From Escherichia coli (GTDB lineage Bacteria > Pseudomonadota > Gammaproteobacteria > Enterobacterales > Enterobacteriaceae): a stretch of DNA of 64,000 nucleotides. This document shows positions 56,412-57,167 of this stretch, in pieces. The stretch lies in the NCBI RefSeq assembly GCF_030013595.1, contig NZ_CP122768.1; one strand, given 5' to 3'. Made by a program: the position numbers and the translations under genes. The notes beneath the pieces are model-generated. The model worked only from the letters and a program-made list of their open reading frames with translations. It did no database searches and had not been told where the DNA came from. The stretch's first letter is position 1, and every line of letters starts with the position of its first letter.

Positions 56412-56595
56412 AATCATCATTCAGGTATCAGGAAGAGTTAAGGGTACAAGGGGTACTCGATGGCGGTCTATATTTCACGACTAACGCCATTTCAAGGAAG
56501 AAGTGTGGTGGGTGGTTTCGAATGAGGGCTGGTGTTTTGGTACGTGGCACGCCACTGCAATGTATTTATCCATCAGTACTCATTCAAAAGTACCT

Positions 56596-56624
56596 GGAAA
56601 AAATGCCCGCTATGCCAAGCGGGC
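56596..56624 (-). terminator. Terminator-like hairpin on minus strand (GCCCGC-ttggcata-GCGGGC + ATTTTTT)
   Basis: Read directly; no annotated minus-strand gene upstream of it. Confidence 0.4.
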
Positions 56625-57167
56625 AAATTGCTTACATGTGGAATTAAGTAATTAACGATAAAGCCAGAGTATTATCATTTATCATGCCTCTTCATTTAAT
56701 CAGGTTAATTACTCAAATCACTGAACTATTCTCTGTTCGCTCACTGATGATAAGTGAAGTGTCACAACCACGATTTGTATGTGGACCAATGCTGTAGAGT
56801 AAGGATGAAATGTCTCTGCCACGCCTTAAACATCTACTACTGACTAGAACCGCCGTCGAATGCAGAAGAGCCTTGTGAGCATTACAGGAGTCTGGCTTTG
56901 GTCATTAATCAACGCTATTTAGATATAAATTTCTAACACTCAAAAAACGATTCTCACGAATAAATTATAACGGGTGGTTTTTATCATACAGTGAAATAAC
57001 CTTTTGCTTATTAAATTTAACATTCTTGTGCTAAATTAATTAAAAGTACCATGTATAGCATATGAAGCTGTTAATGCCAGCAATTGTCTCAAATGAGCGA
57101 TTTTTTATAGTGACAAACAATAATAACATTAAAAATAGCCATGTAGACATTAACTGAGGAAAAGACA

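Follow-up and report, generated by a model that had tools for sequence, protein, structure and literature searches.

The spacer between the isoleucine tRNA gene ileY and the gene ypjCB in Escherichia coli raises the question of which transcript, if any, is ended by a terminator-like hairpin that points leftward, toward the tRNA gene. We analysed this locus in a window of 64,000 nucleotides (RefSeq assembly GCF_030013595.1, contig NZ_CP122768.1), in which ileY, encoding tRNA-Ile(CAU), occupies positions 56336–56411 on the plus strand, and ypjCB (DUF5507/DUF5508), intact here and encoding 484 amino acids, occupies 57168–58622 on the same strand. The latter is the gene that an initial interpretation of the letters alone (the sequence-only reading) had called an island ORF. 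The interval under study is thus the E. coli ileY–ypjCB spacer, and leftward read-through would cross ileY in antisense. The plus strand of the window is the minus strand of K-12, and a window position x converts to K-12 position 2785762 − (x − 56411), which is valid over the indel-free block 56412–56756. In the examined genomes RefSeq annotates no feature between the tRNA and ypjCB apart from one type of spurious plus-strand ORF, called where an island splits the tRNA, and annotation of a terminator or RNA at the hairpin region is absent in every carrier genome. In K-12 and many further strains ypjCB is split or pseudogenized, and its alleles differ by 20–27% (73–80% identity) between E. coli strains, a sequence divergence that suggests old or diversifying alleles. 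All protein homologues are from Escherichia or Shigella, to which the family seems limited, and the only contigs that a YpjCB scan of genome contigs gave by way of an outgroup for the hairpin locus were two contaminants, one resembling K-12. On the other side of ileY, the alpha-amylase-like gene ygaQ (53524–55776, minus strand) is an intact 750-aa ORF here and is reduced to a pseudogene in many others, K-12 among them.

The sequence-only reading had described a GC-rich hairpin and T-run on the minus strand at 56596–56624, and a consensus scan confirms the motif with a shift of 1–2 nt. As directly established, the minus-strand sequence TGCCCGCTTGGCATAGCGGGCA (56625..56604) forms a perfect 8-bp stem with six G-C pairs and a 6-nt loop, followed with no gap by TTTTTT (56603..56598), the last position being the predicted RNA 3′ end. 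A G-C-rich stem of 5 bp or more, a loop of 3–8 nt and a U-tract right after the stem on the transcribed strand, the hallmarks of an intrinsic terminator, are therefore all present. The minus-strand RNA of the 51-nt segment 56590–56640 folds with a minimum free energy (MFE) of −15.9 kcal/mol (z = −2.3 versus shuffles). Because the plus-strand stem runs into AAATTGCTT, the motif is a one-way, minus-strand terminator; a plus-strand terminator serving ileY was rejected, the U-tract being absent on that strand. Under a strict definition of the motif (perfect stem of at least 7 bp, at least five G-C pairs, at least six T in eight positions), five distinct sites are found in the 64-kb window versus 0.3 on average in dinucleotide-preserving shuffles, an enrichment of about 15-fold that makes a chance origin unlikely. 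The window holds one more terminator that seems to point the wrong way, at 26322–26339 between two plus-strand ORFs; its hairpin is strong and has a T-run on the minus strand alone. The hairpin sequence does not occur in the searchable literature text.

Among 5,426 complete E. coli genomes, about 3,085 carry the hairpin region and 3,100 the block 56412–56760, each as a single copy. Phage and plasmid collections lack the block, save three chromosome-sized (4.8–4.9 Mb) E. coli records filed as plasmids, and the trailer plus hairpin resembles entries among 50,697 phage records only in the tRNA itself; a phage or plasmid origin of trailer and hairpin was rejected on that ground. Polymorphism of the hairpin is essentially confined to one site, C/T at 56608, with the exact 39-mer carrying C in 1,037 and T in 2,028 of the 3,085 genomes. 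The C allele gives the perfect stem, and the T allele, carried by K-12 and by two thirds of the carrier genomes, gives a C·A mismatch in the minus-strand RNA and a G·U pair in the plus-strand RNA. With T, the MFE of the 51-nt segment falls to −9.7 kcal/mol (z about 0) versus −15.9 for the window allele. Since 2,028 of the 3,085 genomes keep the C·A mismatch and none holds a compensating double mutation, selection on the minus-strand stem is weak. Position 56608 is homoplasic: two O157:H7 strains that are 2 SNPs apart in 1,600 bp differ at it, and both alleles occur on three promoter sub-haplotypes, a pattern for which a quasi-palindrome hot spot, recombination or selection could each account. 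In one strain the hairpin is interrupted at 56605 by an IS903B, which is tolerated. Comparison of nine aligned loci (seven distinct haplotypes over 56412–56640) shows 56515–56667 to be SNP-poor, with five variable sites in 153 nt and none in 56609–56667, the flanks of which vary by 4–6%; the low SNP density of 56515–56667 is merely marginal when set against the less diverged left block alone.

A search for sigma-70 motifs, which the sequence-only reading had suggested for the minus strand of the spacer, returned a candidate start for a transcript that would end at the hairpin. A position weight matrix (PWM) scan places this promoter-like element at 56681..56708 on the minus strand, with the −35 hexamer TTAACC (56708–56703), a 16-nt spacer and, in the window, the −10 hexamer CATGAT (56686–56681), which reads TATAAT in K-12, O157 and other haplotypes. 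A promoter close to the sigma-70 consensus, TTAACC-16-TATAAT, lies on the same strand as the hairpin and 55 nt upstream of it in about 74% of the carrier genomes. Of 3,079 genomes, approximately 2,272 carry the K-12-type 42-mer with no more than one mismatch, and 807 belong to the band corresponding to the window-type CATGAT form. The TATAAT promoter is the top-scoring minus-strand site of the spacer in the K-12, O157 and L004 haplotypes; the degraded window allele agrees with consensus at 8 of 12 positions (four of six in each hexamer) and lies outside the six best minus-strand PWM sites. All seven sampled CATGAT loci have a perfect stem, and TATAAT is combined with a perfect hairpin in five sampled loci (at least five genomes), strains of this genotype being O157:H7 PV15-279, O145 RM12367-C1 and strain 1190. 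From the positions of promoter and terminator, the fold and the SNP map we infer a non-coding minus-strand transcript of about 78 nt (56598..56675), starting near 56673–56676 and ending at 56598, with an A/U-rich stretch before the hairpin and a U6 tail. The promoter-like element is bracketed by a perfect 9-nt inverted repeat, GTAATTAAC and GTTAATTAC at 56648–56656 and 56704–56712, which could be an operator or an AT-rich chance occurrence. In genomic SELEX a site for the sigma-70 RNA polymerase holoenzyme was found in the spacer in vitro and assigned by the authors to the ypjC direction, and the spacer was flagged as bound by H-NS (PMC3946193). The covariance-model search that had been proposed along with the promoter search gave no match for a spacer RNA: at a permissive threshold Rfam returned the tRNA and nothing else above noise, and weak matches to the Trp leader and to STnc560 (MgrR, an unrelated locus at ydeI/ydeE) were discarded as terminator-driven noise. 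No literature linking ileY or ypjC to a small RNA was found.

Published K-12 data provide a strand-specific view of the locus, and here the expectation of a leftward transcript is borne out in part: weak minus-strand transcription is seen, but no 3′ end at the hairpin. In Term-seq data from three growth conditions (Adams et al. 2021, PMC7815308) neither strand shows a 3′ end at the hairpin, 2785570–2785577(+) included, in a strain that carries the weakened T allele and is not that of the window; the sole 3′ end in the vicinity, at 2785762 on the tRNA strand, is that of the mature tRNA. DirectRNA-seq with bicyclomycin in K-12 defines an 'orphan' Rho termination region at 2785647(+), with reads upstream/downstream of 55/19 in untreated and 114/154 in bicyclomycin-treated cells and a Rho score of 3.9 (PMC7815308). 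This position, coarse because the published method uses 800-nt windows, converts to window coordinate 56526 (minus strand), some 75 nt beyond the hairpin, and lies in a rut-like stretch, C-rich and G-poor, that the minus-strand RNA reaches after the hairpin (56460..56580; GC skew +0.35 to +0.42). C-rich, G-poor RNA and bicyclomycin-sensitive read-through, as expected of a Rho region, are thus found together here at the resolution of those 800-nt windows. The reads indicate weak leftward transcription at this place in K-12, which runs through the weakened hairpin until Rho ends it, and the weaker fold of the K-12 hairpin (−9.7 vs −15.9 kcal/mol) fits this read-through. The covered portions of a 3,376-library compendium list no novel transcript at the hairpin locus, and neither the supplement of the Cappable-seq paper nor that of the dRNA-seq study by Romero (2014), both of them possibly incomplete, has a match at its coordinates. 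In the parts of the published K-12 tables covered, the signal consists of diffuse Rho-sensitive reads and not of a discrete transcript.

Our best explanation, to which we give about an even chance, is that the hairpin is a genuine Rho-independent terminator of the minus strand that closes a short non-coding unit in the ileY–ypjCB spacer and is under weak constraint. In most E. coli, TTAACC-16-TATAAT at 55 nt upstream would give rise to the RNA of about 78 nt that the hairpin ends. In the window strain, because the −10 hexamer is degraded to CATGAT, the hairpin would mostly stop weak leftward transcription from DNA upstream of ypjCB, the likely source being the AT-rich, H-NS-bound region there, and with the nearby promoter degraded the element would be largely idle. 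Transcripts that escape the hairpin would meet the C-rich stretch 56460–56580 and be ended by Rho before or around ileY, and the net effect would be to keep antisense transcription out of ileY. The short RNA itself is probably a by-product, not a conserved regulator.

The surroundings of the hairpin are variable in their own right. The tRNA gene and its trailer form an insertion hot spot (56365–56625; loci L010, L011, L017, L018 and L026): an O22:H8 strain carries a large SPI-7-type island with iha, btuB and ato genes and a crossover at the ileY anticodon loop, a P2-like prophage remnant replaces everything past 56458 in another case, and IS3, IS1 and IS903B insertions are found at ileY or its trailer. 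Where an island occupies ileY, the crossover lies inside the tRNA and homology resumes at 56365, so that the trailer and hairpin are on the host side of the island junction. The tRNA gene is unusually polymorphic in E. coli (56362–56379 in the anticodon stem; 56401). Pair 28–42 is A-U in the window and G-C in K-12, a compensatory change, with C or U at position 43; recombinant alleles have an A28·C42 mismatch (L004 and L006) or G28·U42 (O157), and A66 changed to G gives a U7·G66 wobble (L004 and L005). A 19-nt imperfect inverted repeat (74% complementary; 56413–56431 and 56733–56751) has its two arms at the borders of the low-divergence block downstream of the tRNA; this block, being single copy, is not a repeat family.

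The sequence-only reading had noted that 56640–57160 holds no minus-strand ORF of 60 aa or more, which is correct (the largest have 42 aa, 57040..57168, and 54 aa, 57089..57253, the latter overlapping the ypjCB start), and had offered three sources for the orphan terminator: a small RNA, a very small ORF or a lost island gene such as an integrase. The very small ORF fares poorly. Most minus-strand mini-ORFs are frameshifted or stop-altered in other haplotypes and none ends beside the terminator; the stretch from the promoter-like element to the hairpin contains no conserved small ORF, nor is there any conserved ORF with a start codon that ends before the terminator. The sole mini-ORF open in all nine aligned loci is the 42-codon one (57040–57168, TTG start, antisense to the ypjCB start region); it ends 415 nt from the hairpin, shows many amino-acid changes and is probably a chance ORF. 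On the plus strand, a 21-codon ORF with a good Shine-Dalgarno sequence (56460–56525) was rejected on account of a stop at codon 7 in K-12. The proposal of a small RNA has partial, indirect support from a same-strand promoter in most carrier genomes and weak K-12 transcription on that strand, and is weakened by the window's CATGAT hexamer, the lack of a K-12 Term-seq end, the empty Rfam search and a stem mismatch left uncompensated in two thirds of the carriers. That the hairpin ends a functional, strain-variable small RNA of about 78 nt, with hairpin and U6 as an Hfq-binding 3′ module, acting in trans or on ypjCB, we regard as unlikely. The spacing of promoter and terminator on one strand is that of small-RNA genes, the body 56609–56667 is invariant in the nine aligned loci (seven haplotypes over 56412–56640) next to flanks varying by 4–6%, the hairpin has its A/U-rich lead and U6 tail, and TATAAT and a perfect hairpin do meet in at least five sampled genomes; yet the K-12 datasets, in the portions covered, list no discrete RNA, neither a curated RNA family nor covariation is found (0 of 3,085 genomes compensate), the locus is confined to Escherichia and Shigella, and most genomes have either the weak promoter or the broken stem. 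A fossil, that is, the surviving terminator of a decayed or deleted minus-strand gene (integrase, island or phage gene) once to its right, is also a doubtful explanation. Terminators outlive coding sequence, the stem is weakly constrained, and ileY is a busy site that has received the SPI-7-type island with integrases, the P2-like remnant and IS3, IS903B and IS1. Against this, the six frames of 56412–57200 have no match in Pfam or PHROG. The tblastn comparison that the sequence-only reading had called for, run with two integrases of an ileY island, gave a best E of 2.7, and an exhaustive phmmer search with a 62-aa minus-strand piece, the longest, returned just the spurious ORF called in the region itself and translations of CRISPR repeats. 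The latter (FNPHTHEGCD), which also account for multi-stretch phmmer matches, are chance matches inflated by repetition; the region itself is free of direct repeats. Residual similarity to the catalytic domain of tyrosine integrases is thus lacking, the 50,697 phage records hold nothing similar outside the tRNA, and the hairpin's place on the host side of the island junction likewise speaks against such an origin.

Two further readings dispense with minus-strand termination. That the palindrome arose by chance or matters at the DNA level alone, playing no part in transcription, would agree with its being unannotated, with the missing report of an RNA end, with the tolerated disruption and with the recurrent flipping of 56608, as expected of a quasi-palindrome mutational hot spot; the roughly 15-fold excess of strong hairpins with T-runs over shuffles in the window and an A-tract/stem/T-tract geometry specific to terminators make it quite improbable. 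The plus strand might instead be the functional one, the hairpin forming, together with a 66-nt imperfect palindrome (56520–56585) that adjoins it within the C-rich stretch and is nearly invariant across haplotypes, structures of the 3′ trailer of the ileY precursor (for processing or stability, or as a 3′ETS-like RNA), with the opposite T-run incidental. The 66-nt palindrome has its most stable fold as plus-strand RNA (−27.9 kcal/mol, z = −4.1, with several G·U pairs), a z of −4.1 is also reached by the plus-strand segment 56515–56590 alone, and the whole plus-strand trailer 56412–56640 reaches −74.8 kcal/mol (z = −3.4), an energy matched by none of 200 shuffles. These structures use several G·U pairs that are impossible on the minus strand, and both stem SNPs (56571 and 56608) give G·U in the plus-strand RNA and C·A in the minus-strand RNA. 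Two transitions, however, amount to just a 1-in-4 argument about strand, G+U-rich strands generally fold better and the minus strand also reaches z = −3.3 to −3.5. Moreover, A6 before the stem with T6 opposite is the exact geometry of a minus-strand terminator, and K-12 Term-seq lists just one 3′ end here on the tRNA strand, that of the mature tRNA at 2785762, so that a stable trailer RNA is not found on that strand in K-12. We consider a plus-strand function, too, to be distinctly improbable. Only a slender chance is left for a strain-polymorphic small RNA with two segregating switches, the −10 allele (TATAAT/CATGAT) and the 56608 stem allele, flipping by quasi-palindrome templated mutation; lineages would therefore toggle among the RNA of about 78 nt, antisense read-through into ileY and silence.

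Returning to the favoured reading of a genuine minus-strand terminator, the hairpin compares closely with E. coli intrinsic terminators in its G-C-rich 8-bp stem, 6-nt loop, immediate U6, 5′ A-tract and segment energy of about −16 kcal/mol, and differs from them in having no annotated gene or RNA that feeds it, no reported 3′ end in vivo and, in the commonest allele of the species, an internal C·A mismatch. With the 3′ module of Hfq-dependent small RNAs (a hairpin and at least six U, with an A/U-rich lead) it shares the geometry and, in most strains, a sigma-70 promoter at small-RNA-like distance; unlike those RNAs, the locus has no discrete transcript in the K-12 tables covered and no Rfam match, is found in one species and rarely has promoter and stem both intact. 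The H-NS flag, the many promoter-like sites and the bicyclomycin-sensitive K-12 'orphan' region in a C-rich stretch recall the silencing of AT-rich acquired DNA by Rho and H-NS, except that here an intrinsic terminator precedes the Rho site, the two making a putative fail-safe pair. RNAs of the 3′ETS-leuZ type are likewise structured sequences directly downstream of a tRNA on the tRNA strand, but at ileY no stable plus-strand 3′ end is reported and the hairpin lacks a plus-strand U-tract. As at quasi-palindrome template-switch hot spots, 56608 switches the stem between an imperfect and a perfect palindrome, on three or more haplotype backgrounds and also among O157:H7 strains, although recombination or selection could yield the same pattern.

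The finding is a modest one at the level of annotation, concerning a familiar class of element in the best-studied bacterium, and it leaves current understanding unchanged. If the terminator works, it would add one unannotated transcription-unit boundary to the E. coli map and would be an example of a Rho-backed intrinsic terminator that shields a tRNA gene from neighbouring foreign DNA. The alleles at 56608, perfect in one third and mismatched in two thirds of the carrier genomes and flipping on several backgrounds, are natural variants for the effect of a single mismatch on termination.
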